Origin: a virus
Virus genome (UHGV): UHGV-0014571
Reading direction: 5' to 3' (one strand)
DNA: 41,429 bases
Part shown: positions 501 through 25,214 of the stretch, piece by piece
How positions within the stretch are numbered: the first letter of the stretch is position 1
Layout of the letters: each line of letters begins with the position of its first letter
Program-made: the position numbers and the translations under genes
Notes under the pieces: model-generated
The model's input: the letters and a program-made list of their open reading frames with translations, nothing else
What the model was told of the DNA's origin: nothing
The model's database searches: none

Positions 501-1466
501 ATGAAAAGAAAAAAATACTGTCCAAAATGCGGTTATAAATCCGCCTATGATTATTGTCCGGAATGCGGATATTGTCTGAGGGATATCTCGATGAAATCAA
601 AAAATACTTCATCGAAAAGAAAACTTCTTTTGGGAATATTCATTCCTACAGGCATTCTGATAATAGTCGGTCTTATTCTTTTAATGATTATAATATTCAA
701 TCCCCATCTGTTATCTCCAAAAAATGAAGAAAATAATACATCTTCGTCCAATCAATACGATCAAGATAAATATGAAAAATTGCTTTCAACTATAAACATA
801 ACACACTATACAATACTTATTAATAATAATTGCTGTATATCTACAGGAACCAATACAAATGATTTAAAAGATGTATTTCCGGATGGTATATATCATTACA
901 ACGACAATGTTTTTTCCCTGGCGGAATCCGGCAATTCAATTGCTTTTGCTATTCAAACAAAAGATGAATACGGAGATAAACTGGATGATAAAGATGCCTA
1001 TATTAGTATGATTGTCTCCAATGATCCCAATGCCGTCGATTTTCATGGTATTTCGGCAGGCGATTCCGTAGAGGATATTCCTTCCTTCTTTGAAATTCTC
1101 GACTCTCCTGTAAACGGCGAAACAGTTTACAGTGTACGATACAATGATAATATTCCAGTATCTCGTGATAAGTCTATTAATACTTATCCTATTTCCTGTG
1201 AAATCTCATATTTTGTATCTGATGGAATTATCAATCGCATTATGATTTCCCAAAGCTTATATGATTTTTATTGCAACGAACACCGGATGGAATATCTCGA
1301 TGAATCTCCAGATATGGAAAATTACAAAAATGTAACTGACTGGTTTGATGATTACTGTGATTGGGAGGAAAAAAAATATAACGAATGGCTGAACAGCGAA
1401 TGGTATAGCGGCAATGCGATTGCAGAAAATGATCAATATAACAACGCTCTTAAATATCTTGATTGA
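501..1466 (+). CDS. zinc-ribbon membrane protein: N-terminal CPxCG...CPxCG, one TM helix, ~250-aa extracytoplasmic domain
   Basis: ORF track 321 aa, MKRKKYCPKCGYKSAYDYCPECGY then hydrophobic LLLGIFIPTGILIIVGLILLMIIIF. Preceded by AAAGGATGTGACACAATG, nearly identical to the leader of the next gene. Confidence 0.6.
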   Translation: MKRKKYCPKCGYKSAYDYCPECGYCLRDISMKSKNTSSKRKLLLGIFIPTGILIIVGLILLMIIIFNPHLLSPKNEENNTSSSNQYDQDKYEKLLSTINITHYTILINNNCCISTGTNTNDLKDVFPDGIYHYNDNVFSLAESGNSIAFAIQTKDEYGDKLDDKDAYISMIVSNDPNAVDFHGISAGDSVEDIPSFFEILDSPVNGETVYSVRYNDNIPVSRDKSINTYPISCEISYFVSDGIINRIMISQSLYDFYCNEHRMEYLDESPDMENYKNVTDWFDDYCDWEEKKYNEWLNSEWYSGNAIAENDQYNNALKYLD

Positions 1467-1492
1467 GATATCACAAGAAAGGATGTGACATA

Positions 1493-2467
1493 ATGGAAAA
1501 ATATTGTCCTCGATGCGGACATAAATCTGCATACAAGTTCTGCCCAAAATGTGGTTTTTCCTTACAGCAGATCAAGGTTGCAGAAAAAAAATACTGTCCC
1601 CAATGCGGCTTTAAGTCGGACAAAGATTTTTGCCCAAAATGTGGTTTTAATTTAAAAGATATTAATTTAGAAGAAACTAATAGTTCAATTCCTGAAGTGC
1701 AGTCTTCTGCTCAAAATGAATCTCATTCACAGCTTGATCAAAATATAAACATTCAGAAAAGCATCACAGAACACCAACCGGAATATGCAAATAAAGAGGT
1801 TCAGCAGAATAACGAGATTGAAACAAACACCGAGACTTACTACAAACAGACAGATATGCTAATGAAAGAAATCTCTATTCCAGATCGGCTGTATAACCTT
1901 CCTACAAAAGGATTGGAAAGAGCAAACGAATTAATTAATACCACCTACTGTCCTATTAGTTTTCTAAACGCATTTATCAGGGTTTTGCTTCCAATCGGAA
2001 TTGTTCTTTCCCTCATTAGCGTGATTAGTGCTTATTCAAATGTCTTCTATTCTTACAATTATTCTTCAGACACCTATACAGTGTTAACTTTTGCAATTAT
2101 GCTTGACACATTGCAGGTTCTTCTACGCATTCTATCATGGGTATATTTGAGAAAATATAATTATACGGGATATATTCTTTTATTCGTCTCATGGTATATA
2201 AATCTTGTTATTGGATTAATTCAATTTAATAATATTATCAGTTCATTGGGTTACTTTATTCCTTTTTTCGTTGCAAATATTATCTTTACGATATACTGGG
2301 AAAAACGAAGATTTCTCTTTACCGAAAAGGCAGAATTTCCTATTTTTAAAGCTAAATCAAAATACAATATAAAGATCTATGCTACTCAGGAAATGAAAAT
2401 CCGTATCTTTATTCTTAATTCAGGATATTGTTTAATCTATGTGATTCGAGTGCTTGCATCGTTATAA
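1493..2467 (+). CDS. double zinc-ribbon protein with C-terminal 4-TM domain (paralog of the upstream gene in its N-terminus)
   Basis: Start taken at ATG 1493 (MEKYCPRCG...) after AAAGGATGTGACATAATG. The track start at 1463 is TTG. Two CPxCG pairs, then four hydrophobic segments. Confidence 0.6.
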   Translation: MEKYCPRCGHKSAYKFCPKCGFSLQQIKVAEKKYCPQCGFKSDKDFCPKCGFNLKDINLEETNSSIPEVQSSAQNESHSQLDQNINIQKSITEHQPEYANKEVQQNNEIETNTETYYKQTDMLMKEISIPDRLYNLPTKGLERANELINTTYCPISFLNAFIRVLLPIGIVLSLISVISAYSNVFYSYNYSSDTYTVLTFAIMLDTLQVLLRILSWVYLRKYNYTGYILLFVSWYINLVIGLIQFNNIISSLGYFIPFFVANIIFTIYWEKRRFLFTEKAEFPIFKAKSKYNIKIYATQEMKIRIFILNSGYCLIYVIRVLASL

Positions 2468-2518
2468 ATCCCCCCGGTAATCTCTCACCGGATAAATCTC
2501 TTAAATGAGGAATGTATT

Positions 2519-4003
2519 ATGAATGTCGCAATCTATCTCAGAAAGTCCCGTGCAGAAGAAAACGCTGTTTCTTTAGAAGATACACTGCACCGACACAAAG
2601 AAACTTTGCTTGAATTTGCTAAAAACAACCATTTAACCATTTTAAAAATATATGAAGAAGTTGTCTCCGGAGAAAGCCTTTATGCACGACCGGAAATGCT
2701 TCAATTGCTTTCTGAGGTTGAGGACGGGAAATATGATGCCGTACTGGTTATGGACATTGATCGGCTCGGCAGAGGCGCTATGAGCGATCAAGGAGTAATT
2801 CTTGAAACCTTTAAAGCTTCTGACACAAAGATTATTACCCCTCGCAAAATCTATGACCTGAACAATGAATTTGATGAAGAATACACCGAGTTTGAGACCT
2901 TTATTGCCCGCCGTGAATTATCATTAATCAAACGACGGATGCAACGCGGAATCCAAAAATCTTTAGAAGACGGCTCCTATATTGCCAACGCTCCTTATGG
3001 ATATAAAAAAACCAAAGTAGGAAAACAACCCACTTTGGAAATTTATGAACCGGAAGCAAAATTTGTTCGGTTGATTTTTGATCTGTATGTCAATGAGGGA
3101 ATCGGCGTTCAAGCTATTTCAGAACGATTGACACAAATGGGAGCGGTATCTCATCGGTCAAATGCTTTTCCCAAAACTACTGTGTTGAAAATTCTGCGGA
3201 ATCAGGTTTACATCGGTAAAGTAGTCTGGAACCAGAAAACCTATACAAAGAAAAACGGAAAGAAAATTGTTACCTATAATCCCCCGTCAAAATGGAAAAT
3301 AATTGATGGGATTCATCCTCCGATTATTGATCAGGAACTATTTGAAAAAGCAAACGATATTTTATCCAGAAAATATCATCCTCCGAAAAACAACGGTATC
3401 TTATATAATCCTCTTGCCGGTTTGGTGGTCTGTGAAAAATGCGGAAAACAAATGGTTCGAAGAAAATATACAACATGGGGTTCCAAACAGCGTGAAGTTA
3501 ATTACATCTGTACCACAAAAGGATGCACCCCCTACGAACGCATGGAAAACGTAGAACGCGCCATTATAGAACACTTATATCATCTTTTTCTACAGATTCA
3601 GACAAAAGCAAAACAACAAAATAAAAACTCAAACACTATTCAGGCATCTATGACAGCAATTGACCGGGAATATCTGGCATGCCTAAAACAAAAAGACCGA
3701 CTGCACGATCTATTAGAACAAGGCGTTTATGATATTGATACCTTTGTACAGCGTTCTCAGATATTGACAGAAAAGATAAATCGGCTTAAAATAACCAAAA
3801 ACGATTTAATTCGACAGCTTCATCAAGAGGAAACAGATAAATTTTATCTTCTCCCGGACTTTGTTATTTTATTTGATAATTACTGGTCTGGTTCTCCGGA
3901 AGAAAAAAACAAACTGCTAAAGAAAGTCGTTGATCATATTGTTTATCGAAAAGAACACAACAGTCAATTAGGCAATTTTTCATTAAGCATTTACTTAAAA
4001 TAA
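2519..4003 (+). CDS. int: large serine recombinase (phage integrase)
   Basis: N-terminal resolvase-type catalytic domain (AIYLRKSR with catalytic Ser, DIDRLGR), recombinase domain, Cys4 zinc ribbon (CEKCGK...CTTKGC) and C-terminal coiled coil. 494 aa. RBS GAGGAA upstream. Confidence 0.9.
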   Translation: MNVAIYLRKSRAEENAVSLEDTLHRHKETLLEFAKNNHLTILKIYEEVVSGESLYARPEMLQLLSEVEDGKYDAVLVMDIDRLGRGAMSDQGVILETFKASDTKIITPRKIYDLNNEFDEEYTEFETFIARRELSLIKRRMQRGIQKSLEDGSYIANAPYGYKKTKVGKQPTLEIYEPEAKFVRLIFDLYVNEGIGVQAISERLTQMGAVSHRSNAFPKTTVLKILRNQVYIGKVVWNQKTYTKKNGKKIVTYNPPSKWKIIDGIHPPIIDQELFEKANDILSRKYHPPKNNGILYNPLAGLVVCEKCGKQMVRRKYTTWGSKQREVNYICTTKGCTPYERMENVERAIIEHLYHLFLQIQTKAKQQNKNSNTIQASMTAIDREYLACLKQKDRLHDLLEQGVYDIDTFVQRSQILTEKINRLKITKNDLIRQLHQEETDKFYLLPDFVILFDNYWSGSPEEKNKLLKKVVDHIVYRKEHNSQLGNFSLSIYLK

Positions 4004-4007
4004 TACC

Positions 4008-4053
4008 GGTCTATCCTGTTTCGTCTTCATCATAAGATGGTACATGATAGACC
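4008..4053. other. candidate attP core: 46-bp segment bounded by 8-bp perfect inverted repeats GGTCTATC / GATAGACC, immediately 3' of int
   Basis: GGTCTATCctgtttcgtcttcatcataagatggtacatGATAGACC read directly. Serine-integrase attP sites are ~40-50 bp imperfect dyads next to int. Confidence 0.25.
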
Positions 4054-4185
4054 ATAAAAAGGAGAACACTTATTATGATCTATTTTATATCACCCGTGCT
4101 ATACCATCAGAGATTATAACACCTATTTTATAACGGCTTGTTTTATGTTAAATGATGCAATATTATGTAAAAAGTGGGAAGTGAA

Positions 4186-4809
4186 ATGATGAAATATTTA
4201 GGGAAAATAATTCATGAATTACGGCTTGAAAAAAACTTGACCATTGAAACTCTGGCATATCATGCAGGGATCAGTGTTTCACACATGGGATATATCGAAA
4301 GAGGAACAAAAACCAACATACAAATGGACACATTAGAAAATATCGCAAAAGCTCTAGATATAAAACCTTACCAATTACTCCTGTACTGCGACCAATTGGC
4401 AACTTCATGTCCAATGGCAAATGTTTTAGTCAGCTGTGTCGGCTGTGAAAAAAATGAAGATGATGCGTTAATTTGCCGCACTTCAAAACGAATCAATACC
4501 GCAGAGCAACTTTTAACCGATTCTAATATTTCTCATATTAAACAAATCAAAAAAACAATAGCAAAAGCTCAACCAGAATATTTATACTCTGTTTCTGAAG
4601 AAATCATGTGTTCAGAAGAAAACGGATATTATAAAACTTACGGAATCCAATGCTGTCATTATAGTAATCCATCCACTGTTATTTTTAAAGTAAGCGATGT
4701 TTCTGTTGAAAAACAAAATGTATCGGAACTTACCGATCTTTGTAATATAGAAAAGCTAGAACCGATTCATTTAATGGATGTCATTTATGATTTTATTTTA
4801 ACCACATAG
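4186..4809 (+). CDS. XRE-family HTH protein with Cys-rich C-terminal domain of unknown function
   Basis: N-terminal KIIHELRLEKNLTIETLAYHAGISVSHMGYIERG = HTH_XRE. Track start 4174 is GTG; ATG at 4186 follows GGGAAGTGAA. The C-terminal ~130 aa, rich in Cys, match nothing recognisable. Confidence 0.6.
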   Translation: MMKYLGKIIHELRLEKNLTIETLAYHAGISVSHMGYIERGTKTNIQMDTLENIAKALDIKPYQLLLYCDQLATSCPMANVLVSCVGCEKNEDDALICRTSKRINTAEQLLTDSNISHIKQIKKTIAKAQPEYLYSVSEEIMCSEENGYYKTYGIQCCHYSNPSTVIFKVSDVSVEKQNVSELTDLCNIEKLEPIHLMDVIYDFILTT

Positions 4810-4810
4810 T

Positions 4811-4845
4811 AAAAAACCGCTAGAGAACTTCTAGCGGTTTTCTTA
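4811..4845. terminator. bidirectional rho-independent terminator between convergent genes
   Basis: AAAAAACCGCTAGAGaactTCTAGCGGTTTTCTT: GC-rich hairpin flanked by an A-run and a T-run. Confidence 0.75.
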
Positions 4846-4852
4846 TTGCTTT

Positions 4853-5620
4853 TTACAACTTTACAATCATATCCCAATCTTTACCGCCGAAATATCCGAC
4901 GCCCAGTTTGTATTTCTTCTGGAACTTGTGAACGGCATCCATTGTGATTGTTCCGGCTCCTCCTCCGAGATCCCCGTGATAGAATCCCAGCTTCTTTAAC
5001 TTTGCCTGTACCCATTTCACATACTCGCCCTTTGTTCCGTTTTGGATTTTCAGCTTGCGGCAGTATTTCTTTGTCAATGCTCCGTACCTTGTTCCTATTG
5101 CATTGATTCCACACTTGAACGTTGCATTTAAAATCTGCTGTAAATGTTTTAAGCTGATATCGTATTCCTCTTTTACAATCGGATAATTCGGCACTCCGTA
5201 TCCTAAGATATAGCTGTTTGATTTCTCATAGGTTCTCCGCATGACTTTATCGTTGGCGTTTCCCTCTATCGTATGTACGGTATTTCCAATCACCTTTTCT
5301 ACAATACCGACATGTGTGCTGACTCCTTTCTTGTTGGTAAAGAAAATAATATCTCCGCTCTGCGGTGTGTAGCCGCTTTTATTCCGCCATCTTCCCTTTC
5401 CCTTAAACCAGTTCATCCCAATCGTACAAGACGCGAATTTCGGGATTACAGAAGTGCTGACACCCGCCTTATTTGCACACCATGACACAAAGATAGCGCA
5501 CCATGCCGTTGTCAGCGGAATACTCGTGCTGTACCACTTAATATATTTGTCGTCTCCTGTCGGTTCTGCATGTCCGATTTCACCGATTGCAAGAGATACA
5601 ATGCTTTCTCTTTGGCTCAT
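4853..5620 (-). CDS. endolysin: N-terminal CHAP amidase/peptidase plus C-terminal peptidoglycan-binding domain
   Basis: CHAP-like Cys/His region (TTAWCAIFVSWCANKAG...STHVGIV) and a PG_binding_1-like C-terminus (YVKWVQAKLKKLGFYHGDLGGGAGTITMDAVHKFQKKY). Last gene of the late operon, after the holin. Confidence 0.85.
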   Translation of the reverse strand: MSQRESIVSLAIGEIGHAEPTGDDKYIKWYSTSIPLTTAWCAIFVSWCANKAGVSTSVIPKFASCTIGMNWFKGKGRWRNKSGYTPQSGDIIFFTNKKGVSTHVGIVEKVIGNTVHTIEGNANDKVMRRTYEKSNSYILGYGVPNYPIVKEEYDISLKHLQQILNATFKCGINAIGTRYGALTKKYCRKLKIQNGTKGEYVKWVQAKLKKLGFYHGDLGGGAGTITMDAVHKFQKKYKLGVGYFGGKDWDMIVKL

Positions 5621-5621
5621 A

Positions 5622-5873
5622 TTACTGACCCTCTTTCTCGGCTTTAATCTCTTTCATTACGCCGTCTGCGGCGATTGCCGCTTCGGAGAAGCTGTTATTT
5701 TTCCACCATGCTGTAACTGCCGCCACTACGGTAAAGATTGCCGTAATGCCTGCATACACCTGATCGTCCGAAAACGGCAGCGGATTGATTCCGAACATAG
5801 TTAAAATCTGATTGATTAATGCGATAACCAATACTGCTGTTCTTGCGATTGTTCCTGCGCTTACATTTTTCAT
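5622..5873 (-). CDS. holin (2-TM small membrane protein)
   Basis: Track ORF starts at TTG 5918. ATG at 5873 (MKNVSAGTIARTAVLVIALIN...) has the strong RBS AGAAAGGGG. Two hydrophobic helices plus a charged C-terminus. 1-nt gap to the endolysin. Confidence 0.6.
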   Translation of the reverse strand: MKNVSAGTIARTAVLVIALINQILTMFGINPLPFSDDQVYAGITAIFTVVAAVTAWWKNNSFSEAAIAADGVMKEIKAEKEGQ

Positions 5874-6004
5874 AAAGATATCCCCTTTCTTATTTATGAC
5901 AAGTGATCTGTCTGACAATCTAATCCTATCATGCCGATTATTTTGATGTCACACCACCCTAAACCAAAAATGCCGGAGAGAATCTTTCATCTCTCCGGTC
6001 GTTT

Positions 6005-9000
6005 TTAGGATGCTTTTTCTTTTTGTCTGTTTAGAATAATATCCACAACAGATCCGCCGTATTTATCTGCTTTCAAAGCCTTTAATTTCCAACCGTTTGT
6101 TTCGTAATCGGAAATCTGCGTTTTTCCGTAAACAGATGCATACTCATAAACATCTGCAACACACTCCGCTTTTTCTTCGTCCGATAACGAACGATAGCCG
6201 GCAGACTGAATTAACTGTTCCATCAAATGATATGCTTTCTGTCCTTTTGCCTTTGCAAATTTCGTATATTCTTCCGCCGTTAAATCCTTTCTCACCTTAT
6301 TAACCATAAAATACTTCGGTGCAGTTGACGGGAATACCGATTTGTCTCCGACAGCTTCATAAAGTCTGGTAATTTCTTTTTCCACCGCACGTTCGGCATC
6401 ACTGGTGTTACTGCTGTATCCGGGGCTCACAAAGTTTTGAAGAGCGCGTTCTAAAATATTCCCCTGCGTTTCTTCTCTTCCCCACAAGTCAATATACGGC
6501 TGACTCAGTTTACTTGCAAAAGGAATTTTATTCATATTTTTCTGGAAGAATTTTTGGAAATCGGACGGAACCTTAATGTTTTTGTCCATATATGTCGTTC
6601 TTCTGGTATCATCAATTGTCCGTGCCACCTGTCCTAAAACAGTCGGATTTGCCTGTCCGAAATATCCGGTTATCGTATTCATTGCAATGCTTCCCAATCC
6701 GTTATCTCCATAGGAAATTGATTCCAGAATATTCTGCAATCCGCTTAGCATTGACATCTCAATAATCGGATCAGCCAGTTTTTTGGTATCATCCACAAAG
6801 TCGGAAACCGAAAATCCTTCCCGTTCTCTCGATAGTGTCCGGAACACTTCGGATCCTACAAACAGCGGAAGCACCGATGGCGCCATCCAGTCAATCGTAT
6901 AAGAGAAGTTTCCGATTTGCAGAGAATACGGCTGATATCCCATGTTCTGTTCAAACCGGTCTTTCTTCTCCTCATCATCCCCTCCGGGACGCAGAAATCC
7001 AATTGAATTTAAAAACGCACCCAATACAAACAAGGCGCTTCCGGATAAGCCTGCCGAAACGGAATCAATATATTGTGTTGCCGTAATCTTTCCGGTTTTG
7101 ACATTTCTGGTTCCTACACTCAAAGCATAAATCAAACCGGCAGGGCTGTATTCCACACCACGCCGCAAAATATTAATCGGCGTTTTCTTAAATGGCAGCA
7201 CCCCTTCAACAAGCAACTCTGTTGCCGCATTGGTATGAGCGATTCTTTGGATTGCACTTGCTACTGCGGAGGCATCCCGGTACGTCGCCTTTTGCGCCTC
7301 ACTGATTGCATAATTTCGTGCGCGTTCCATAACGGCAATAGATTCAACGGAATTTAAATCAACATGATTGACTGACAGATATCCGGCAAGAGCATTGATA
7401 TAATATCTCTTCAGGAAAAAGCGGTCTTCTTTTTCCAATAATTCGGAATTTAGTTTTCTCAGCTTTTCCAATGGCTCAAACCGAAAGATTCTGCGATGAT
7501 CTCTAATAATATCCTCCGGATTCATTTTTCCGCCGCCGGATATAATATCCATCATCTGTTTAAAGTCATTCTTCGCAAATTCCTTATACTCTTTTCCGAT
7601 ATTAAGTGTCTTGGTACGCTCGGTTTTTGCACCGGCATACTGATATGCCGCCTCAAGCCCTGTAGCAATCAGGTTTTTCAGCTTCACTGTCGGCATGAAT
7701 ACGGCATTTCCAAGCACGTTTCTGACATGTGTTCGAGGATTCCCCAGCATTGCCAGATATCGCCATGCGTTCCACTTATCCGCAAACGTAGGCGGAAGCT
7801 GTTTTGCCAGATCTTCATAGATTTTCTGATTTGCCGCATCAATTTCTTCCGGTGTTTTTGCATTGAGCAATTCCTGTTTCAGCTGCTGCGGAATTTCAAC
7901 ATACTCTGCTTTTCCGTGTTCTCGGCGCTTTTCAAGATCCTGATTCAGACGGTCAACTACACGCTCGTTATACACAAGCTGTCCTTCGCCCGACATCTTT
8001 TTGAGCAAACGAAATGCCTGAACATTCTGTCCCGATCTGGTTCCTTCTTCGGCAATCTCCGCCGCCAATTCCATCGCAAGCCGGTAATCGCCGTTTTTTG
8101 CCGCCTGCATATACAGCTTTTCAGCCAACACGATATCATTTTTAGAAGCAGAATTTTTATTGTTCAGAACACTTCTCCATTGTCTCAGAGCACCGTCAAA
8201 TCCTTTGTGATTTATCACGGTATCCGCTTCTTTCTGCGCTGTATTGTCCTCAATCGGATTGTAGTTGAATGTTCCGTCCATAATCTCCCGTTCAAATTCC
8301 GATACCATTTCATCCGGTGTCGCTTTGGCTTCCATCGCAGTACGTGCAAACTGTCTGACTTTGGTATCTTCTGTTGTCTGTTTCGGCACATCCACATCAC
8401 GGATCGGGTTTTCTCCTTTGGAAATTGCACCGTACTGTTCAACCGCATTTCGATATAACGGGTTGTCCGACATATTGATTTTTGTGCCGGATTGAGGTAT
8501 ACTGTTATTGGAAACAGCGTTATTGATCAAGGTGCCTACGGGTCTTGATAGGTCAAGTTGACCGGCGCTGTTTCTTTTTTTGTCTGTAATAGCATACATA
8601 TGATTTTTACCATCGAATTTGCCATGCCCGACATTCAATAAGATCGGTTTTGATTGTTTTCCATTAGAAGTATCATATTCAATGGTAACGGCGTAATAAT
8701 AAAAGCGAGTAAACTTTGGATGTTCAACATCAGTTTCTTCTTGCAAAACAGCTTTTTTAATAATTGCTTCCAATTGTGATATTTCAGCAACTTTTACAGG
8801 TCCTGCATGTTGAGCCATCTCTTTTGCATCACTGTTGTCCATCACCGCCTTACGACCATCGCTAAATGTTATTTCAGTACCTCCGTATTTACGGATTAAA
8901 TGTTCTTTGATTATAACAGAAGCACTCTTTTTAGAAGTTGCGATTTCCTTTGCAAGATCAGAATCCATATCTAAACTTACAACAGCATTGTGACTTATCT

Positions 9001-17580: not shown

Positions 17581-19434
17581 CTACTTCCATTTTCCGATGA
17601 TTTGAATGTTAAATCCGTATGTCATTGATGTCGCTGTTTTTGCAAAATATACCAGTCTTGCGATAGCAACTTCCGACATATTCTGCTGTTGGTTCATGTA
17701 ACAGTTTGAAATGTTCCATGCATTAAAAATCGGTGAAACACTTGCCGAAACCAATGACACAAAAGAAATCGGAAAATTAATATTCTTTGTAACTGTGGAA
17801 GTAGAAGCACTGACGTTTTCGGTATAAAGCCAGCACTCATACAGTCCGTTGTTCCATTTCCGATAATTCCATCCCTCACTGGTTCCCTCCTCTATGACAA
17901 AATCAGCAAGTGATGATCCCTGAATCACCGTATTTCCCGTTACACTCAGATTTTTGCCGAGGCTTACATCTTCTTCAAAGATTGACTCCCATCCCACCTG
18001 AAACGAATAGGGTTTTGTGTAGTCACAATACCGCCCGACCGCCGTATTCTTTCCGCCCTGCCCAAGATGCAGCGGAACATCGTCGGTTGGAATATCAAAG
18101 GAGATCTCCGAACTTTCCCCGATATCATCCGCCACTCCGAGCTGAATGGTATAAGCATTGGTAATCGGAAATTCGATATCCGGGATCAGCGCACTGAACG
18201 AATCCGTATCGGTATTTGACTTTGCAATCAGATCATTCCACGGCTGATTTCCCCACGATTCAGAATCCGGCTTATATCTCCATCTCAACGAACAAAAATT
18301 CTTTTGACTGTTATCGGCTGTAATCGCGGTATAGTTTCTTTTTGCTTTTACCCATATTTTCGTTGAGCTGTTGTTTCTTCCGCCGTCGGCGTTTCCTCTG
18401 TAACATTCCACTGAATCGGATCCGTCCGTCGGGACAACATAGGGTTTGCTGTACGAATATACAAACAATTCCTGCTGACTCAAAGCCGAAAACCCTCTGG
18501 AATCTGTCACCTTTGAAGTAATAGTCTGGTTGCCGGTTGCGGACAAAAAGTCAGAAGTAAACGACGACACAGTATACGTTTTTCCGTCTGCGACAGTAGA
18601 ATAACTGCCTATAGTTGCATTGTACTTGGTCTGAGCCGACAATGTCACATCTACCTTAGATTTTCCCTGAATATAGATTCCCTGAAACGCAGTGCCGAGC
18701 GATCCGTTATTTGCCGCCGCTGTCACAGTCAGTTCGGGTTTGGTGGCATCTGTCTCCTGTACGGAAAATGTTTTTTCAACCGTACTGAAAAACGTACTTC
18801 CCGACATGATTGTTTTAATGATGAATGTTACGGTTCTGCTCCCGCTTGTGGTTGCATTCCGCAGTAAATCCCGTTGTGCATCCGTTAAGGAAAATGTGTA
18901 GGTGCTTGCGGTCTTTGGAATATCCCGATATTCGATATCCGGATAGTTGCCGACCAGTGAGATACAGGCTACCAGTGTAGTAACCGCATTTCCTGCCGGA
19001 TTGCTGTACCGAATGGTCGGATTGTCCAGATCGGTAAAATTCGGTGCCGAAGTAATCGTCGCTTTCCGCGGGATATTGGGCAATGACCATGAACCGCTTC
19101 CGCGGCAATTTACCGCCGTACTGTAGATTCCGGCTTCCGCCGATGCGCTAAACGATTTATTGCCGAGATTGTCATGTTTGAGTGTATAGGATCCGCTGGC
19201 AACAACTGTTCCGTTTTGCAGCCGGATTCTTTCGGAAGAATAGTATACCTGTACGCCGTCAATCACTACTTTGAAATTCCCGGACATATACCATGACGAA
19301 CTGCCCCCGGCGCCTTTTAACGTCCAGTCAATCGTCGTTTTGTTATTTGCAATGTCAGAAGCTCTTGCCGTCCATGCAAACTGCAAATATCTTCCGCTGT
19401 ATGCGCTTGTGTTAAAAGATCCGCTTCCTGCCAT
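17581..19434 (-). CDS. putative tail fiber / receptor-binding protein (~617 aa)
   Basis: ATG 19434 after AGGAGG (track start 19443 is GTG). S/T/N-rich beta-type composition typical of phage fibers. Position within the tail module. Confidence 0.5.
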   Translation of the reverse strand: MAGSGSFNTSAYSGRYLQFAWTARASDIANNKTTIDWTLKGAGGSSSWYMSGNFKVVIDGVQVYYSSERIRLQNGTVVASGSYTLKHDNLGNKSFSASAEAGIYSTAVNCRGSGSWSLPNIPRKATITSAPNFTDLDNPTIRYSNPAGNAVTTLVACISLVGNYPDIEYRDIPKTASTYTFSLTDAQRDLLRNATTSGSRTVTFIIKTIMSGSTFFSTVEKTFSVQETDATKPELTVTAAANNGSLGTAFQGIYIQGKSKVDVTLSAQTKYNATIGSYSTVADGKTYTVSSFTSDFLSATGNQTITSKVTDSRGFSALSQQELFVYSYSKPYVVPTDGSDSVECYRGNADGGRNNSSTKIWVKAKRNYTAITADNSQKNFCSLRWRYKPDSESWGNQPWNDLIAKSNTDTDSFSALIPDIEFPITNAYTIQLGVADDIGESSEISFDIPTDDVPLHLGQGGKNTAVGRYCDYTKPYSFQVGWESIFEEDVSLGKNLSVTGNTVIQGSSLADFVIEEGTSEGWNYRKWNNGLYECWLYTENVSASTSTVTKNINFPISFVSLVSASVSPIFNAWNISNCYMNQQQNMSEVAIARLVYFAKTATSMTYGFNIQIIGKWK

Positions 19435-19435
19435 C

Positions 19436-20164
19436 CTATACACCTCCTACCCATTTAAAAGCAACTCCGGATGTTAAATCACAAAGATATCTTCCCAGTT
19501 TCAGCGATCCGGTGATCTCCGCATTGGTAATATACAGTTTTGTTCCGCTCATCCATGCCACGGCAGACGAATATCCCGGCAGATAAAAATAGATTCCGCC
19601 TGCGGTAAATCTTGCAAATTTGTTGAACTGTTCTTCTCCGTCTATTGTCGTCTTTTGCCCTACTTCCATGCCGTATATCGGAACGCCCTGCGCATCATAT
19701 TCCAACAATCCGGATTTCATCCATGCATTGGTATCAATGACGCTGTGCTCCAGCGTTTCGATATCCGAAAGAATCGTTTGAAGATTGCTGTACATTTGTT
19801 CGATTGAGGAGGAGTTTTTGGTAATTTCATTCGATGTTGTTTCACGGTATATTCCAAAATCGGAGCTTGCTACATAATCTCCGTCTAATTTTTCTTTCAT
19901 CTGTTCATAATAGGCGTTTACAATATCCGCCGATTTGATAATCAGAGATTTTAACGAGTTGAAAGTTGTCTGTGCCTGTTTCTGGTCGGCTTCTGTGCGG
20001 TCGGTGATTTCAAGCTCTGCCGTTTCGCCTCTTGATGCGGAATCAATGGTATTCAGCGCCCAATTCAACTGTTGTACCAGCTGATACAAATAGCTCTGTA
20101 TCTGTGCTGTCTGCAACTCGGCGGACGGCGCTGTGATATTCGGAAGTCTGATATCAATACTCAT
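19436..20164 (-). CDS. putative tail needle/fiber protein with N-terminal coiled coil (242 aa)
   Basis: TAATG overlap with the upstream gene. N-terminal heptad-rich AELQTAQIQSYLYQLVQQLNWALNTI.... Size and position parallel P22 gp26. Confidence 0.4.
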   Translation of the reverse strand: MSIDIRLPNITAPSAELQTAQIQSYLYQLVQQLNWALNTIDSASRGETAELEITDRTEADQKQAQTTFNSLKSLIIKSADIVNAYYEQMKEKLDGDYVASSDFGIYRETTSNEITKNSSSIEQMYSNLQTILSDIETLEHSVIDTNAWMKSGLLEYDAQGVPIYGMEVGQKTTIDGEEQFNKFARFTAGGIYFYLPGYSSAVAWMSGTKLYITNAEITGSLKLGRYLCDLTSGVAFKWVGGV

Positions 20165-21990
20165 TACAGATCGCTCCCCTGCTCAATGGTTTTGGTGATT
20201 GAATAAATTTTGGCGTCTCCCGTTCCCACAATTTTAAAGCGGAAATGATCGCACCGTTTCGGTTTGACCGGGACAGAAAAGCTGCGAAGATTTGTTCCGG
20301 TCATGGAGGACAGCAGCTCCCACTCGCCGCAGGAATCATACTGCGCATAAAACTTGACGGTTGTTCCGATTCCCAGCGACATTCTGACAACGAGTCGGGA
20401 AACATATTTCTTGTCCGGCATCGACGTGCCGATCACTCCCGTTTCCGCCATCCATGAAATCGGGTCGCTCTCCTTGCTCCCGGATCCGAGAATTGCTTTG
20501 ATTTTCTGATCGGAATGATCCAGATAGTAAAGCTCTCCTCTGCATGCACAAAAGGCATCTGCTCTTGTTTCGTCCTCTTTATGCCACATACCGGACGACG
20601 CGTCATAGACAAACAGATACCATTTCCCGTCTGTTTCATCGTTCATAGTAATGTAGTATTTGTTGTGAATTGATCCTGCAACCGCGCCGTTTCGCAATGC
20701 TCCCCATTCTCCCGTTATCGTGCTGTCCGTGCCGGTATATTTGATTCCGCCGAAATAATAGGACACTTCGGACGGCAGGGATCCGTCATATACGCATACC
20801 CCGGTTCTTGATTTGTAGTACAGTTTTTCGTTGACAATCGCCAGACTGTTTCCGCATCCCTTTTGCACCCCGCGGCACGCCGTAGACTGAATCTGATAAT
20901 TGGACGGATAATTCCCGTACACCTTGTGCATAAAATCCTCTTTAAAAAAGAGCGGATATCCCAGATAAGCAACCGCTCCCGTCCATTGTCCGTCCGTTCC
21001 GCAGGACGCCGTATAGCTGTCGGTTGACAATCCCATATAGCAGTTCCAGTTTTTAAAATCCCCCTGCTTGCTGGCATAAATCTCGTTGACAATCTCTCCG
21101 TTTTTTGCCGTGCCGTACCGACATCCCCACAGCCGGTTATTGGCTTCTATGATAAAATCAAGATTCGGCATCTCTCTTTTGACAGTAAGCGGAGCATCCT
21201 GTTTTGTCACATTATCTAAAAACCCCACGACAACCAGATAATCTCCCGCACCGTTTCCATCCTCATCCTTGTACACATCCCACAGCACGCTGGTCTGTCC
21301 TTCCAGATCCTTGAGCTGAGTAATCGAGGAATCAATTCCGGACAGAAGAACCCCGTCATACTGTCGAAAAGCAGAGGCAATTCCGGGTGACTTAATCTTG
21401 ACATAGGTGGTTGCGATGTTCGTCCATACTGCACTTGCAGATGAATACTGCTTTAAGGTATGCGGTGTAGTCGAGGTATCAATCCACAGATCGGCATTAT
21501 CGGCTTCTTCCGGTTCGGCATTTGATACGGTAACATCGGGATAAGCCGTACCGTCAACTTTGCACAGCTCGTACGACACCGTAGAGGACGATGTATAGCT
21601 TGATTCAATGCTTCCGTATTCGGTCAGGTCTTTGGTGTTGATGTATTTTTTGTCCGGCATAATAATGACATACGCCCCCATCGACACCAATTGTTTGGGA
21701 CACATCTCCGCATCGGAGGACAACCCCAGATCAATCGAATATTCGTCAATGACAAAGTTTTTGCCGTCAATATAACACAGCGAATCTTTGGCTATAAGCC
21801 CTAACGGCTTTTGCGGAGAAAGCGCCAGCCCTCTTTTTTCTCTCGGAGAAAGAATCGGATAATAGGTCGAAGTCAGATTCTTCATGTCGTAAAATTCTCC
21901 GTCGGCAATCCTCAGATTGTGATTATATCCTCTGAATGCATCCACCGTGTCTCTTGCTGTTTGAATCACTTCAAGTGTCGGCTGAATCAT
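20164..21990 (-). CDS. putative tail hub/tail structural protein (608 aa)
   Basis: Large ORF between the adaptor-like and needle-like genes. No recognisable enzymatic motifs. Confidence 0.45.
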   Translation of the reverse strand: MIQPTLEVIQTARDTVDAFRGYNHNLRIADGEFYDMKNLTSTYYPILSPREKRGLALSPQKPLGLIAKDSLCYIDGKNFVIDEYSIDLGLSSDAEMCPKQLVSMGAYVIIMPDKKYINTKDLTEYGSIESSYTSSSTVSYELCKVDGTAYPDVTVSNAEPEEADNADLWIDTSTTPHTLKQYSSASAVWTNIATTYVKIKSPGIASAFRQYDGVLLSGIDSSITQLKDLEGQTSVLWDVYKDEDGNGAGDYLVVVGFLDNVTKQDAPLTVKREMPNLDFIIEANNRLWGCRYGTAKNGEIVNEIYASKQGDFKNWNCYMGLSTDSYTASCGTDGQWTGAVAYLGYPLFFKEDFMHKVYGNYPSNYQIQSTACRGVQKGCGNSLAIVNEKLYYKSRTGVCVYDGSLPSEVSYYFGGIKYTGTDSTITGEWGALRNGAVAGSIHNKYYITMNDETDGKWYLFVYDASSGMWHKEDETRADAFCACRGELYYLDHSDQKIKAILGSGSKESDPISWMAETGVIGTSMPDKKYVSRLVVRMSLGIGTTVKFYAQYDSCGEWELLSSMTGTNLRSFSVPVKPKRCDHFRFKIVGTGDAKIYSITKTIEQGSDL

Positions 21991-22002
21991 ACTGTCTCCC
22001 TC

Positions 22003-22374
22003 CTAAAAATATTTGATTTTGGTTCCGAGCGGCATATGCTCTCGGTTATAATACCGTTCCAGCGAAGAATAAGCCGTGTTAAACGCCGTAATGCTGTTGT
22101 TGTATTTGGCATATTCGGCATTGTAATAATCAATGCGGGATTCCAGCCAGTACAGATATAAATCATCATATCCGGCGGGTGCCAACAGCTGCGTTGTCGT
22201 CGGCGTCGTATCGCTGTACCCGTCAAACGTGATCTCCTCCCATCCCTCATGCCGATCTATGATTTCTGTTTTGATGATCTGATCTAAGCTGCTAAGCCAC
22301 TTGATTTTCTCCGAATCGGTATAATTGTTCGGCTTCAAAGAATTAACCGATTTGATCGCTTCTTCAATCGTCAT
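22003..22374 (-). CDS. putative head-tail adaptor/connector protein (123 aa)
   Basis: Position immediately after the capsid gene; size compatible with a portal-binding adaptor. Confidence 0.3.
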   Translation of the reverse strand: MTIEEAIKSVNSLKPNNYTDSEKIKWLSSLDQIIKTEIIDRHEGWEEITFDGYSDTTPTTTQLLAPAGYDDLYLYWLESRIDYYNAEYAKYNNSITAFNTAYSSLERYYNREHMPLGTKIKYF

Positions 22375-22449
22375 ATCACTGCCCCCTTATATTCCGGTAT
22401 AAAAAATAAGGGAGACATCGCCTGCCTCCCTTCCTTTTCGCTTATTTTG

Positions 22450-22677
22450 TTATCCCTGAACGGAAGAATCAAATTCATATGCACTTTCCAGCGCCTGCTC
22501 CTGATGCCGCAAAACTTCTGCGACACATTCCGGAACCTCAACTTCAATTCCGCGCTTAATCAGCCACGTCCGCTCATTCACGGACACGAATACATCTGCT
22601 TCTTCTTTTTTCATTCTGGGCAATTTAATTTTAACGGTCTTTTCTCTTGCTTCCTGTGCTTTTTTTGTTTCTGCCAT
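22450..22677 (-). CDS. small hypothetical head-associated protein (75 aa)
   Basis: ORF between capsid and adaptor-like genes, charged and lysine-rich. Confidence 0.35.
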   Translation of the reverse strand: MAETKKAQEAREKTVKIKLPRMKKEEADVFVSVNERTWLIKRGIEVEVPECVAEVLRHQEQALESAYEFDSSVQG

Positions 22678-22734
22678 TATGATCTTTCCTCCTTAAATCG
22701 GATGGGGAGGGATTTCCTCCCCAATTTAAAACAA

Positions 22735-23805
22735 TTAGTTCGCCGGGGTTGCGTCAAAGTCAGGAGAACAGGATTCAACCCGAACAAGATAGTTCGGAAT
22801 CAACAGTTCGGCTGTTTTCAGAGCTTTCCATCCCACAGAGCTTCTCTGATCTAACGGATCGGCTGTTCCTGCGCTTCCTTTCTGTTTGATAATCGTTTGA
22901 AGTCCGCCGCCAGTAATCTCTGTTACGCCGTATGCGCCATCACCGATAAACAGTGTGGCAAATACCGAATGATACACCGCCGGATTCCCGTCGGATGCCG
23001 CTGTTTTTACCGGACAGGTGCTGTCATTCCATACCTTTGCTTCGGTGGTCTGAACAAAACGAACGCCTGCGATTTCCCCGATTTCCCCTTCATAAAGGTT
23101 ATCCGGAGCCGCATATTTGTGTGCGTCAATCCATTCGGGATCACGCATTAAATCATAAGCAACATACGGATGGATGATTGCAACGTATTTTCCGTTGATG
23201 GTCGGCGCATTTTGTCCGCGCAGTTTGGCGACAACCTTTTGAATGGTTTTTACGGTTAGTTTTGCTGTGGTTCCCAAACTGCTTCTGGAAAGCACCTCGG
23301 TTTCTGTACTGCCGGATACTGTCGGACAATAGGTTACGTTTGTGTTTGATACCAAGACATTTCGCACAATAGTATCCAGTGTTGCACCGGCTTGTTTGCC
23401 CAACAGTTTGGTCGCTTCCAAAATGGTGTTGTCCAGTGCTGTCAATTCCAATACATCGGACTGGGTGATATAGTCGCCGTACTGAGAAACCGTCGCAGTA
23501 ATCGCTGTTACATCCAGTCTTTTTCCGTCCGGAGTAACGCCTTCGGTCAGTGCTTCCGTTGCTTTCGGCAAAGACGAGAATTTTCTAAATTCAATGGTTT
23601 TCCCGCCGTTTGCCGGAATCGGTCTTTTCTGTCCGAACTGATCGTGAACAAGCTGAGCCGATGCCTCGTCAATCAATGTCATGTCATAGAATGTTTTCAT
23701 CTCTGCCGACAGATCGTTATAGGCCGGGTATGCTTGTCCGGTGGTGCGGGTATCTCCTGTTACATTAACGTGGTTTGCAAATAACTGTAAATTTAATTCT
23801 TTCAT
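22735..23805 (-). CDS. major capsid protein with N-terminal Prp-cleavable leader
   Basis: 356 aa. N-terminus MKELNLQLFANH resembles the ribosomal L27/phage 80alpha Prp cleavage motif. Gene order scaffold-capsid. Confidence 0.75.
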   Translation of the reverse strand: MKELNLQLFANHVNVTGDTRTTGQAYPAYNDLSAEMKTFYDMTLIDEASAQLVHDQFGQKRPIPANGGKTIEFRKFSSLPKATEALTEGVTPDGKRLDVTAITATVSQYGDYITQSDVLELTALDNTILEATKLLGKQAGATLDTIVRNVLVSNTNVTYCPTVSGSTETEVLSRSSLGTTAKLTVKTIQKVVAKLRGQNAPTINGKYVAIIHPYVAYDLMRDPEWIDAHKYAAPDNLYEGEIGEIAGVRFVQTTEAKVWNDSTCPVKTAASDGNPAVYHSVFATLFIGDGAYGVTEITGGGLQTIIKQKGSAGTADPLDQRSSVGWKALKTAELLIPNYLVRVESCSPDFDATPAN

Positions 23806-23857
23806 GATAATATCTCCTTTTTATTCTTTTCTGACTGCAAGGAGATTGGATTTCGGT

Positions 23858-24802
23858 TTAAAACCGTATCTTTTCTCCCCCTGCAACTCTGCGGATAATT
23901 TCCGCTCGGTCTGCTTTTGAGAGCTGTGACACATCACTCTTGATTACTGCGGATGATTGGTTTCCGATTCCGTTTTCTGTCGGTCTTGCGCCGTTAGCGA
24001 TAATTTTGTTAGTCAGCTGCTGTCCTACTTTCTGGGCGGTAAACTGCATCGCAGCCGGAATAATTTCATCCTTGTGCAACACTTCGTAGGCAGTCCGTAC
24101 ATCAACGTTATTGCGCAGCAGTTCAAAAAACCGCGGATTCTGCATTTCGGTTTCAAAATCAAAACCCGGATAAATGCTTTTGACATGCTCTGCCTGATCC
24201 ATCCAAAACGCAAAGGTTCTGCTTGCATTTTCCTGTGCATCATGCTCTTCCATCTGTTTTTTGATCTCGGCGTTTTCCCGTTCCATCTTTCGGATGTACT
24301 TCAACTGATCTACCGTAATTCCTTTTTCCAGCGCTTCCTCCTCATAATATGAGTTGTCGTCCTCAATGGCTTTATTGAGTGCATCAACATCCGAAGCATC
24401 CACCCCATATTTTTTAGAGAGCATTTCCAACGTCGGCGTAAGTGCGTTGTACCGGTCTACCGTTTCTTTCGTGCTTTTCAGCCTTTTTTGAATGGTATCC
24501 TGAATCCGTGCGTCATAAAGATCTTTGTACTCTCCTTTAATCAGCTTTTCAAATTCGGCAGTACGGTCTGCCTGCGGTACGGCATCACTGTCGGAATCCG
24601 TTTCCTTGGTCTGCACATTGGCGGGATGTGCGTCCTCCTGAATCCCATATTTTACATTGGCAAGAGGATTTTTATCAGCCTTTTTTGCGGATGTGGCGGG
24701 CATCCCATCAGCCGGTGTTCCGTCTGCACCGGTGCCACTGTCTCCTGCTCCCTCTGCAAAGAGCTGAAGATTGATGCGACGGATTATTTCTTTTTTTGAC
24801 AT
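23858..24802 (-). CDS. scaffolding protein with N-terminal Prp-cleavage motif
   Basis: 314 aa, acidic and helical. N-terminus ...RRINLQLFAEGAG. Located between the Prp-like protease and the capsid. Confidence 0.65.
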   Translation of the reverse strand: MSKKEIIRRINLQLFAEGAGDSGTGADGTPADGMPATSAKKADKNPLANVKYGIQEDAHPANVQTKETDSDSDAVPQADRTAEFEKLIKGEYKDLYDARIQDTIQKRLKSTKETVDRYNALTPTLEMLSKKYGVDASDVDALNKAIEDDNSYYEEEALEKGITVDQLKYIRKMERENAEIKKQMEEHDAQENASRTFAFWMDQAEHVKSIYPGFDFETEMQNPRFFELLRNNVDVRTAYEVLHKDEIIPAAMQFTAQKVGQQLTNKIIANGARPTENGIGNQSSAVIKSDVSQLSKADRAEIIRRVAGGEKIRF

Positions 24803-24823: not shown

Positions 24824-25204
24824 TTAAAGTGAGCGATTCTTTTCTATATCGACAGGGACAGATTCCCTATCAAACCGTGTAATCTGCACATACTCCGGAT
24901 AGTGATGTGCCAAAAGGGCAAAACCCGCCTGCACCGTAAGAAACGTCTGCAATGCTTTTGCATAGGCGTCTTTGCGCGGTTTACAGGTGATAACGGCGTT
25001 TCCCTCGTTCAGCGTAACAGCAGGCTTTTTCTTGAGCTTGCCGTCTGCATACAGTTCCGATACAATCTGAGCGGCCGTATATGCTAGGATTGTTGCCGAG
25101 GCGCAGATCAGATCTTTTCCTGCTTCGGCTTGTCCTGCGTGTCCGCTTATTGTCAGAACAAATGACTTTTGATCTTGTGTTGTTTCAAACCTTGCTTTAA
25201 TCAT
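24824..25204 (-). CDS. prp: Prp-like cysteine protease (ribosomal-processing protease homolog; phage prohead protease)
   Basis: Start at ATG 25204 (MIKARFE...) with RBS AAGAGGAA. TISGHAGQAEAGKDLICASATIL matches the Prp His/Cys dyad region (GHA...C). Confidence 0.7.
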   Translation of the reverse strand: MIKARFETTQDQKSFVLTISGHAGQAEAGKDLICASATILAYTAAQIVSELYADGKLKKKPAVTLNEGNAVITCKPRKDAYAKALQTFLTVQAGFALLAHHYPEYVQITRFDRESVPVDIEKNRSL

Positions 25205-25214
25205 CCTGTTCCTC

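Follow-up and report, generated by a model that had tools for sequence, protein, structure and literature searches.

The closest described counterparts of the gene analysed here are the polyvalent proteins of Iyer, Burroughs, Anand, de Souza and Aravind (2017, J Bacteriol 199:e00245-17; PMC5512222), who introduced the ART-PolyVal domain, the LPDs and the PBECR clade as building blocks of the class and predicted that embedded zincins process its members. The same paper sets out two head-packaged, injected enzymes that reprogramme the host, the ADP-ribosyltransferase (ART) Alt of phage T4 and the virion RNA polymerase (vRNAP) of N4, the latter about 3500 amino acids (aa) long and containing a zincin module. 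Our subject is a giant open reading frame (ORF) of 3415 aa in UHGV virus genome UHGV-0014571, a stretch of 41,429 nucleotides (nt) that was analysed whole and is called the window throughout. Its product belongs to a huge family of this already described kind, in which it is unremarkable though fairly large. It is a phage-type polyvalent protein, and we think it probable that it serves a temperate gut Oscillospirales phage as an internal virion (ejection) protein that carries cargo.

Like the published polyvalent proteins, the window's protein is giant, lies in a virion late-gene context, combines ART-PolyVal (with an H-Y-D active site), PBECR/MuF_C, LPD3 and zincin-like modules, and has cassettes that are shuffled between orthologues (PMC5512222). 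Unlike them, it has a C-terminal module of ~800 aa and an N-proximal module that match no Pfam LPD or other family, and its zincins fall below every Pfam threshold. A second counterpart is gp47 of the short-tailed Stx phage phi24B, a polyvalent protein of 2811 aa that is abundant in virions by proteomics and unseen in cryo-EM, and that its authors propose to be an encapsidated ejection protein (bioRxiv 10.64898/2026.04.10.717836). In our scans its 2807-aa GenBank product (vB_EcoP_24B gp47, vb_24B_48) matches LPD5, LPD1, MuF_C and LPD38 of Pfam, with no Pfam match to ART-PolyVal or LPD3. Both are giant polyvalent proteins of temperate phages with MuF_C and LPDs; gp47 differs in its LPD set, in its Gram-negative host and in showing no likeness to the C-terminal module (hhalign probability 0.3%). 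The two share a design and one domain, not the anchor.

The core proteins of the T7 gp16 type are the largest of a small internal-virion gene block, as the giant may be, and all alpha-helical, as its C-terminal module is predicted to be, and T7 gp16 itself carries an enzymatic N-terminal add-on, a lytic transglycosylase. N4 vRNAP resembles the window's giant in size and in its zincin module, but no RNA polymerase family was matched here; T4 Alt belongs to the R-S-E clade of ARTs, whereas the ART of the giant is of the H-Y-D kind. The MuF and SPP1 gp7 head proteins share MuF_C (PBECR) and the fusion of a virion anchor to variable effectors, but the giant lacks the Phage_Mu_F domain and has the reverse polarity, with its anchor C-terminal and its cargo N-terminal. 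Two such identities were considered and rejected: a MuF head protein, because Pfam found MuF_C alone and no match to the N-terminal, portal-associated Phage_Mu_F family, and an N4-like RNA polymerase, because scans of Pfam, NCBIfam and PHROG found no RNA polymerase family.

Domains of the giant protein

The window had earlier been described from its letters alone (the sequence-only reading), as a genome of which a single ORF of about 10.2 kb fills a quarter. The gene indeed occupies 10,248 of the 41,429 nt (24.7%). Pfam was run on the whole protein and on ten overlapping tiles, with curated cut-offs, and returned the following.

6005..16252, minus strand: giant ORF, 3415 aa, with an ATG start and a translation without internal stop
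10037..10450, minus strand: ART-PolyVal domain (PF18760), aa 1935-2072; 74.5-80.9 bits against a cut-off of 31.2, over the full profile length
10643..10963, minus strand: MuF_C domain (PF18819), aa 1764-1870; 52.7-54.3 bits against a cut-off of 27.6
11363..11707, minus strand: LPD3 copy 1 (PF18798), aa 1516-1630; 41.5 bits against a cut-off of 27
8672..8932, minus strand: LPD3 copy 2 (PF18798), aa 2441-2527; 24 bits, below the cut-off of 27 (E 4.7e-5)

The earlier proposal of a polyvalent multi-effector protein is borne out by ART-PolyVal, LPD3 and MuF_C, which define the class and score above their curated cut-offs; the zincin matches from the same parsing by tiles lie below theirs. On these profile matches we regard membership of the polyvalent class, and the identities of the domains as predicted from sequence, as established.

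An ART-like domain had been proposed from three motifs, and these do fall within the range given for it, inside the full-length ART-PolyVal match: MYHGT at aa 1943, GNYFTS at aa 1976 and ESY at aa 1996 (window 10259-10426). Their interpretation as an H-Y-E catalytic core has to be corrected. In the ART-PolyVal/Tox-ART-HYD2 class the active site consists of His on strand 1, Tyr on strand 2 and Asp on strand 5 (PMC5512222). The predicted triad of the giant is H1945, Y1978 and D2042, all present, with D2042 in an invariant 'YDG'. His is kept in all full-length relatives compared, the Asp stands in an invariant DG column and the Tyr position holds Tyr, Phe or His; the Glu of 'ESY' is unconserved, its place being taken by Pro, Ala, Glu or Arg.

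MuF_C is a member of the PBECR clade of predicted metal-independent endoRNases (PMC5512222), and the domain in the giant is accordingly predicted to be RNase-like. The sequence-only reading had overlooked it, along with both LPD3 copies, the C-terminal anchor and the conserved N-proximal module. Beyond Pfam, the sole PHROG match of the protein is family 22978, a 3513-position profile of unnamed function (E 7e-84), and the NCBIfam scan gave nothing meaningful. The exact protein has no record in the assembly index, and neither megablast nor tblastn, run against 50,697 phage records, detected a relative outside the ART domain.

The C-terminal anchor and the position of the gene

The last ~800 aa of the giant are a conserved anchor, and the N-terminal ~2600 aa a mosaic of shuffled cassettes. 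The segments concerned are these.

6053..8455, minus strand: conserved C-terminal module, aa ~2600-3400, all alpha-helical, the family-defining anchor
6992..7048, minus strand: conserved hydrophobic Gly-rich helix, aa 3069-3087, within the C-terminal module (Kyte-Doolittle scan; kept in the family consensus)
9050..10003, minus strand: conserved module, aa 2084-2401, ending in a long charged helix (aa ~2335-2410); best stretch of the match to PHROG 22978
13163..13639, minus strand: conserved region before the zincin modules, aa 872-1030; 33% identity to residues 638-1040 of the giant protein of related locus L003
13883..14953, minus strand: conserved N-proximal Gly/Ala/Ser-rich, partly hydrophobic module, aa ~434-790
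14963..16252, minus strand: lineage-specific N-terminal region, aa 1-430, rich in K/N/S/D/Y

Homologues were sought segment by segment; the matched database entries were mostly fragments of at most 1550 aa, and lengths were taken from the ORFs of fetched loci and from a representative library. With the last 885 aa as query, at least 490 proteins were found at 38-65% identity, with similarity running from query aa ~2600 to the end; the N-proximal module returned 1 match and the zincin region 3. The C-terminal module matches no Pfam family, and its strongly conserved motifs include 'KWNAWRYLAMLGNPRTHVRN' and 'LPFKKTPINI'. It stands at the C-terminus in nearly all of the 120 homologues listed, behind N-terminal parts that vary (ART-PolyVal, MuF_C, PBECR3, PBECR5, LPD3, LPD23, ADPrib_exo_Tox or none), and M23 or KTSC, where present, forms a C-terminal tail after it. 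Members made of the module alone also exist, such as P0045 (898 aa).

The family is large. Giant ORFs from 82 fetched loci are typically 2000-2600 aa long, and the three longest measure 3532, at least 4150 and 4220 aa. When 1.84 billion cluster representatives were searched with a family profile, 16,034, 11,296 and 6,279 proteins matched at E <= 1e-3, 1e-10 and 1e-30, respectively, of which the weakest matches may reflect cargo domains because the profile held some upstream columns; the best 150 representatives are mostly 1,700-3,970 aa with the module at the C-terminus. Relatives occur on at least 540 IMG/VR contigs of about 31-56 kb and in 282 of about 185,600 species genomes, nearly all of them Oscillospirales or other gut Clostridia. 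The closest relative in a species genome, with 65% identity in the C-terminal module, is in a prophage of Massiliimalia timonensis (locus L085), a species of which strain Marseille-P3753 is cultured.

The mosaic can be seen against locus L003, whose giant is collinear with that of the window over the whole length, with extra cassettes in each; identity is 33% in the N-proximal module and rises to 64-66% at the C-terminal end. Among relatives the modules recur in other orders and copy numbers. The N-proximal module is common to at least 17 of the 82 related giants, always near the N-terminus, and because both it and the C-terminal module recur, the giants are conserved at both ends and variable in the middle. 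It has no Pfam or PDB match, the PDB profile search giving noise only. The region aa 1-430, by comparison, is covered by none of the 82 related giant ORFs and matches no family. A stretch similar to aa 872-1030 is visible in protein P0122, and aa 2084-2401 are 66% identical to P0001, P0002 and L003. The sequence-only reading had also claimed long coiled coils and C-terminal hydrophobic helices. A charged, heptad-like helix around aa 2335-2410 can be read by eye; the hydrophobic helices reduce to the one listed above, the only one over the Kyte-Doolittle threshold.

Some relatives divide the gene. In L001 it is split into overlapping ORFs of 2631 aa (1945-9840) and 1616 aa (9728-14578), about 4200 aa together, which could reflect a frameshift, a decayed gene (pseudogene) or a mistake in sequencing; automatic gene calling there retained the 3' part only. 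In L002 (6357-12697) an 898-aa module-only protein is preceded by a 1215-aa gene and followed by a 708-aa gene, and some phages may make cargo and carrier as distinct polypeptides. A nested module-only product of the window's gene is without support, because none of the in-frame ATGs within the ORF has a Shine-Dalgarno sequence, including those near the start of the C-terminal module. The divided genes of L001 and L002 would be expected if the giant ORF were an artefact, an assembly chimera or a read-through fusion of separate genes. We consider this exceedingly improbable: most of the 82 independent loci have an uninterrupted ORF of 2000-4200 aa ending in the C-terminal module, hundreds of representative proteins are built likewise, and the collinearity with L003 extends over the whole protein.

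Predicted structure suggests a possible identity for the anchor. AlphaFold2, run on the C-terminal module with 66 sequences, returned a compact all-helical fold (predicted local distance difference test score, pLDDT, 84.6; predicted template modelling score, pTM, 0.78). A Foldseek search of predicted viral structures found close relatives in uncultured gut phages first, and then entries named 'internal virion protein': Pelagibacter phage Eyrgjafa at E 3e-12 and Synechococcus phages S-CBP2, S-RIP1 and S-CBP3 at E 2e-10 to 2e-9, all with probability 1.0 and template modelling (TM) scores of 0.31-0.47. The protein matched in S-RIP1 (Autographiviridae; E 8e-10) is 1067 aa long and encoded after the tail-tube genes and smaller internal proteins and before the fibre, the position of T7 gp16. 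On its model, then, the C-terminal module resembles the largest internal core protein of T7-like podoviruses.

The position of the gene is consistent with such a role. The window is a temperate phage genome, or prophage, of gut Clostridia, and its two ends carry plus-strand genes for a serine integrase and repressor-type regulators. On the minus strand are replication and recombination genes and then the late operon, which begins with the small and large terminase subunits, a P22-type portal, a Prp-like protease, a 314-aa protein, possibly the scaffold, and the major capsid protein. It continues with a 123-aa protein, the 608-aa PHROG-511 homologue, a 242-aa protein, the 620-aa 'tail protein', an 89-aa and a 381-aa protein, the giant ORF, the holin and the endolysin. 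Terminase, portal, capsid, tail protein, giant gene, holin and endolysin thus all share one strand. The immediate neighbours are as follows.

4853-5620, minus strand: endolysin, downstream of the holin
5622-5918, minus strand: holin, downstream of the giant gene, gap of 86 nt
16249..17394, minus strand: 381-aa upstream partner, Q/N/Y-rich and helical, kept directly upstream of the giant gene in relatives
17581-19443, minus strand: 620-aa PHROG 'tail protein', upstream of the giant gene
20164..21990, minus strand: 608-aa homologue of PHROG 511 ('internal virion protein'), E 1.9e-60

The gene therefore does sit between tail and holin genes, as first described, with the PHROG 'tail protein' and the 381-aa gene on one side and holin and endolysin on the other. 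By the coordinates, its start codon and the stop codon of the 381-aa gene overlap as ATGA, a hint that the two are translationally coupled; the 381-aa protein itself has no family match. Roughly 50 related loci had any window neighbour detected, and in these the 381-aa homologue lies just upstream of the giant gene in 41 and the PHROG-511 homologue further upstream in 42. The proposed ejection-protein position is supported by this block behind an 'internal virion protein' homologue (41 of the ~50 loci), together with the fold.

The nearest cultured relatives of the capsid protein, at 37% identity, are from Bacillus megaterium phages Pony, Palmer and Pavlov (genus Pagevirus), which are podophages, and a 'tail-less' (short-tailed) morphology is plausible for the window's phage. 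The likeness to Pony is confined to the capsid protein. Pony's structural module also ends with a large hypothetical protein, of 1679 aa, after a 'lytic tail fiber protein' (19840-24000 in locus L083; 19840-24879 in the record). BLAST finds no similarity between it and the giant; by analogy of place it may be a comparable carrier.

A protein of this size in this region might instead be an oversized tape measure of a long-tailed phage with enzymatic domains embedded in it. The N-proximal module, Gly/Ala-rich and partly hydrophobic, has a composition like that of tape-measure segments, and the 620-aa neighbour has siphovirus homologues. Yet in family scans of the structural module nothing matched a tail tube, sheath, chaperone, tape-measure, Dit or Tal family, the genes between the capsid gene and the giant gene add up to only about 6 kb, and what follows directly is the holin, not distal tail genes. 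The giant protein has no tape-measure match in Pfam or PHROG, its C-terminal module is a compact helical domain and no tape-measure annotation occurs among the 50 viral fold matches listed for it. We thus find a tape measure decidedly improbable, in agreement with the sequence-only reading, which had excluded one: profile searches turn up an ART family and no tape-measure, tube or sheath family.

The same position, last among the structural genes before the lysis cassette, is a common one for fibres and tail lysins, and the giant could be an external tail-associated protein (fibre, spike or virion-associated lysin) that acts at the surface and is not injected. Some relatives bear a C-terminal M23 peptidoglycan peptidase, and receptor-binding-type genes (BppU_N, XkdX) lie nearby in L002 and L001. 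The cargo argues otherwise, as an ART needs NAD+ and the predicted PBECR RNase needs RNA, both intracellular (PMC5512222); Pfam scans of the giant protein show no beta-helix, collagen-like or carbohydrate-binding domain, and the C-terminal fold is like that of internal virion proteins and unlike that of fibres. An external role is therefore unlikely.

It is also conceivable that the protein never enters the virion and is a cytoplasmic counter-defence or toxin polyprotein, expressed late or in lysogeny. Each predicted enzymatic activity could act in the producing cell, and the packaging of family members is itself deduced. We hold this to be quite unlikely, given that the gene lies within the structural operon, on the same strand and ATGA-coupled to the preceding gene of the structural block, that linkage to the PHROG-511 block is kept across dozens of phages, and that the phi24B analogue is present in virions. 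Nor is there an obvious use for an active ART and RNase in the producer cell at a late stage. Of these possibilities, a cargo-carrying internal virion protein agrees best with cargo, fold and gene order.

Zincin-like modules, junctions and the rest of the window

The giant carries two HExxH motifs, where about 0.05 would be expected from composition, so their occurrence is not chance. They are HEAFH at aa 1100-1104 (window 12941-12955) and HEFTH at aa 1330-1334 (window 12251-12265), each in a module that recurs in other proteins. The modules and the boundaries between cassettes are listed here.

12635..13144, minus strand: zincin-like module A, aa ~1037-1206, with a candidate third ligand in an invariant 'EE..AY' (aa ~1161-1166)
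11873..12472, minus strand: zincin-like module B, aa ~1261-1460, with HEFTH, an invariant Tyr at +14 and Glu at +59
13655..13714, minus strand: junction 1, aa 847-866, 'VSQNNTGVNNRISQNN', a low-complexity linker between modules
11153..11251, minus strand: junction 2, aa 1668-1700, 'VSQNDTGVNSIISKND...NPLSIK', a linker and degenerate boundary motif
11780..11794, minus strand: boundary motif 'RFSIK', aa 1487-1491, between zincin B and LPD3
10001..10015, minus strand: boundary motif 'RFSLK', aa 2080-2084, directly after the ART domain

Module A recurs in P0081 (twice), P0100 and P0094, with HEAFH, Y and EE invariant in 5 sequences; module B recurs in a dozen other proteins, with H, E, H, Y, E and A invariant in eight homologues. 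Both module families keep HExxH without change, along with a Tyr ~14 and a Glu ~59-61 residues further on. An hhalign comparison of A with B gives a probability of 63% (E 7e-5), and MAFFT repeatedly set A-type sequences in register with module B, which suggests that the two are related; by sequence they are probably distant paralogues.

For module B the fold can be considered as well. Our AlphaFold2 model covers aa 1030-1475, of which the module A part had no alignment depth and is hence unreliable. Module B is modelled at pLDDT 84-95 as an N-terminal helix (245-257 in model numbering), three strands (261-265, 275-278 and 283-287), then the HExxH helix (292-310) and, further along, the helix that bears the Glu (354-371). 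The metallopeptidase core defined for polyvalent proteins consists of a three-stranded sheet, a flanking N-terminal helix, the HExxH helix and a later helix with the Glu ligand (PMC5512222), and the confident model of module B fits it. Weak Pfam matches to Peptidase_M78 and DUF6782 span aa about 1290-1340 (E 0.002-0.03). Apart from 14-3-3 proteins, PprI/IrrE of Deinococcus (8sln, probability 0.54) is among the best PDB matches, as is a regulator of Mycobacterium tuberculosis (6cyy and related entries, 0.82), namely PrpR, which has an M78-like domain; both agree with the weak Pfam M78 match. Sequence profile searches of the PDB with both modules gave noise only. The lines of support for a zincin in module B are several, weak but convergent. 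The two zincin modules first proposed therefore stand unequally: both HExxH motifs are in place in recurring modules and B is modelled with a zincin-type fold, whereas A is put forward on motif conservation and its hhalign match to B.

The cassettes are separated by a recurrent junction of the general form I-[PS]-Q-x-x-T-G-V-N-x-x-I-S-x-N, then [RK]-[FY]-S-[LIMV]-[KQR]; in relatives the linker is followed by the second motif at module boundaries, and the equivalent of junction 2 in L003 reads 'IPQEDTGVNDSISKNDKNVRFSLK'. At the DNA level the giant gene contains a 53-nt direct repeat (11199-11251 and 13662-13714, 85% identity) that encodes the linker 'VSQN[ND]TGVN..IS.N', with a third related copy just before the C-terminal module (~8453-8500). 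Across 31 non-redundant cargo regions the motif [RK][FY]S[LIMV][KQR] has 17 occurrences where shuffles give an expectation of 0.9, an enrichment of ~19-fold, and it is absent from the C-terminal modules. L003 has six copies, 200-400 aa apart. The junction may be a processing site, a module-starting strand or a recombination joint. As protein, it could be where the giant, once ejected, is divided by its own embedded zincins into six to eight separate effectors; as DNA, the 53-nt repeat could be a recombination site for swapping effector cassettes between phages. That it has both roles, zincin cleavage site and cassette-swap DNA, in a delivery platform of Gram-positive gut phages built from a gp16-like carrier, cleavable linkers and exchangeable cargo, is a tentative idea that we regard as doubtful for now.

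Several features elsewhere in the window are recorded for their own sake. The Prp-type cysteine protease gene (24824-25240, minus strand; Pfam Peptidase_Prp, E 1e-14) lies between the portal gene and the 314-aa gene, an arrangement shared with relative L002; the enzyme presumably trims N-terminal propeptides of head proteins, and the giant protein contains no Prp-type cleavage motif (LxLQFF|A). Upstream of the serine integrase, in a stretch of low GC content (0.35), are two adjacent paralogous genes (501-1466 and 1463-2467, plus strand) with common 90-nt repeats encoding CPxCG zinc-ribbon motifs and a repeated ribosome-binding/start region (486-507 and 1478-1499). Neither matches a PHROG of known function, and the pair could be morons, accessory cargo genes carried in the lysogeny region. 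Five tandem 12-nt iterons (CTACG[GC]TTT[CG]T[AC]-like; 33527-33598), within a replication initiator/DnaD-like gene (33195-33881), probably mark the phage replication origin. Between divergent early genes, an intergenic region holds a 49-nt repeat with copies 341 nt apart (38410-38458 and 38751-38799) and a perfect 20-nt tandem duplication (38778-38817), which look like operators at the lysis-lysogeny switch. In the early region a Mu Gam-like DNA-end protection protein (PHROG 253, E 2e-38) adjoins an exonuclease (35916-36443 and 35205-35897, minus strand), likely a recombination and anti-nuclease module.

Proposed mechanism and significance

Packaging, ejection, processing and targets are what we infer for the giant from the features above. 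In the mechanism we propose, it would be made late, translationally coupled to its 381-aa partner, and packaged inside the capsid via the C-terminal module. On infection it would be expelled through portal and tail, ahead of or with the DNA, and the C-terminal module, perhaps with the N-proximal hydrophobic module, would help to build or cross a conduit through the envelope; the M23 peptidoglycan peptidase tails of some members fit an envelope-penetration role. In the cytoplasm the ART would modify host proteins using NAD+ and the PBECR domain would cut RNA, while the zincins would split the polyprotein into separate effectors, cleave host proteins or do both.

A number of observations weigh against this view. 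In the closest relatives, L001 and L003, scaffold and capsid genes take the place of the holin behind the block; because the giant gene precedes them there, exactly where it lies can vary. The 620-aa 'tail protein' has as a homologue a host-specificity protein of the long-tailed 949-type phages of Lactococcus, which leaves the short-tailed morphology unproven, and phage 949 has a tape measure of similar size (3276 aa), so size alone does not exclude one here. In INPHARED, a homologue of the C-terminal module was detected in none of the cultured phages. In hhalign, the C-terminal family profile matches neither the S-RIP1 protein nor phi24B gp47 significantly; given the result with S-RIP1, it is the predicted folds that link the module to internal virion proteins, and the names of the proteins matched by Foldseek are themselves annotations by position. 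Module A is of low confidence in the AlphaFold2 model and has no fold-level support. Module B is sub-threshold in Pfam, at 18.3-18.6 bits for Peptidase_M78 (cut-off 22; best E 0.002) and 14-16 bits for DUF6782 (cut-off 27; best E 0.008), and Foldseek finds no significant match for it in the PDB (all E >= 0.17). Finally, the family has had no experimental study.

The class was described in 2017 (PMC5512222), and the family of the giant has thousands of members. It is very abundant in human and animal gut Clostridia, amounting to thousands of 50%-identity clusters by profile. The C-terminal module deserves a curated family of its own: defining it would re-annotate thousands of 'hypothetical' giant genes and provide a handle for cataloguing their cargo, to which ARTs, RNases and peptidases belong, and probably functions in counter-defence too. 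The system is directly testable, since the cultured Massiliimalia timonensis Marseille-P3753 carries a 65%-identical relative. If they are packaged and injected, these giants would be the first phage-made proteins to reach the cell, and their cargo would reveal the host functions that a phage must switch off before its own genes are expressed.

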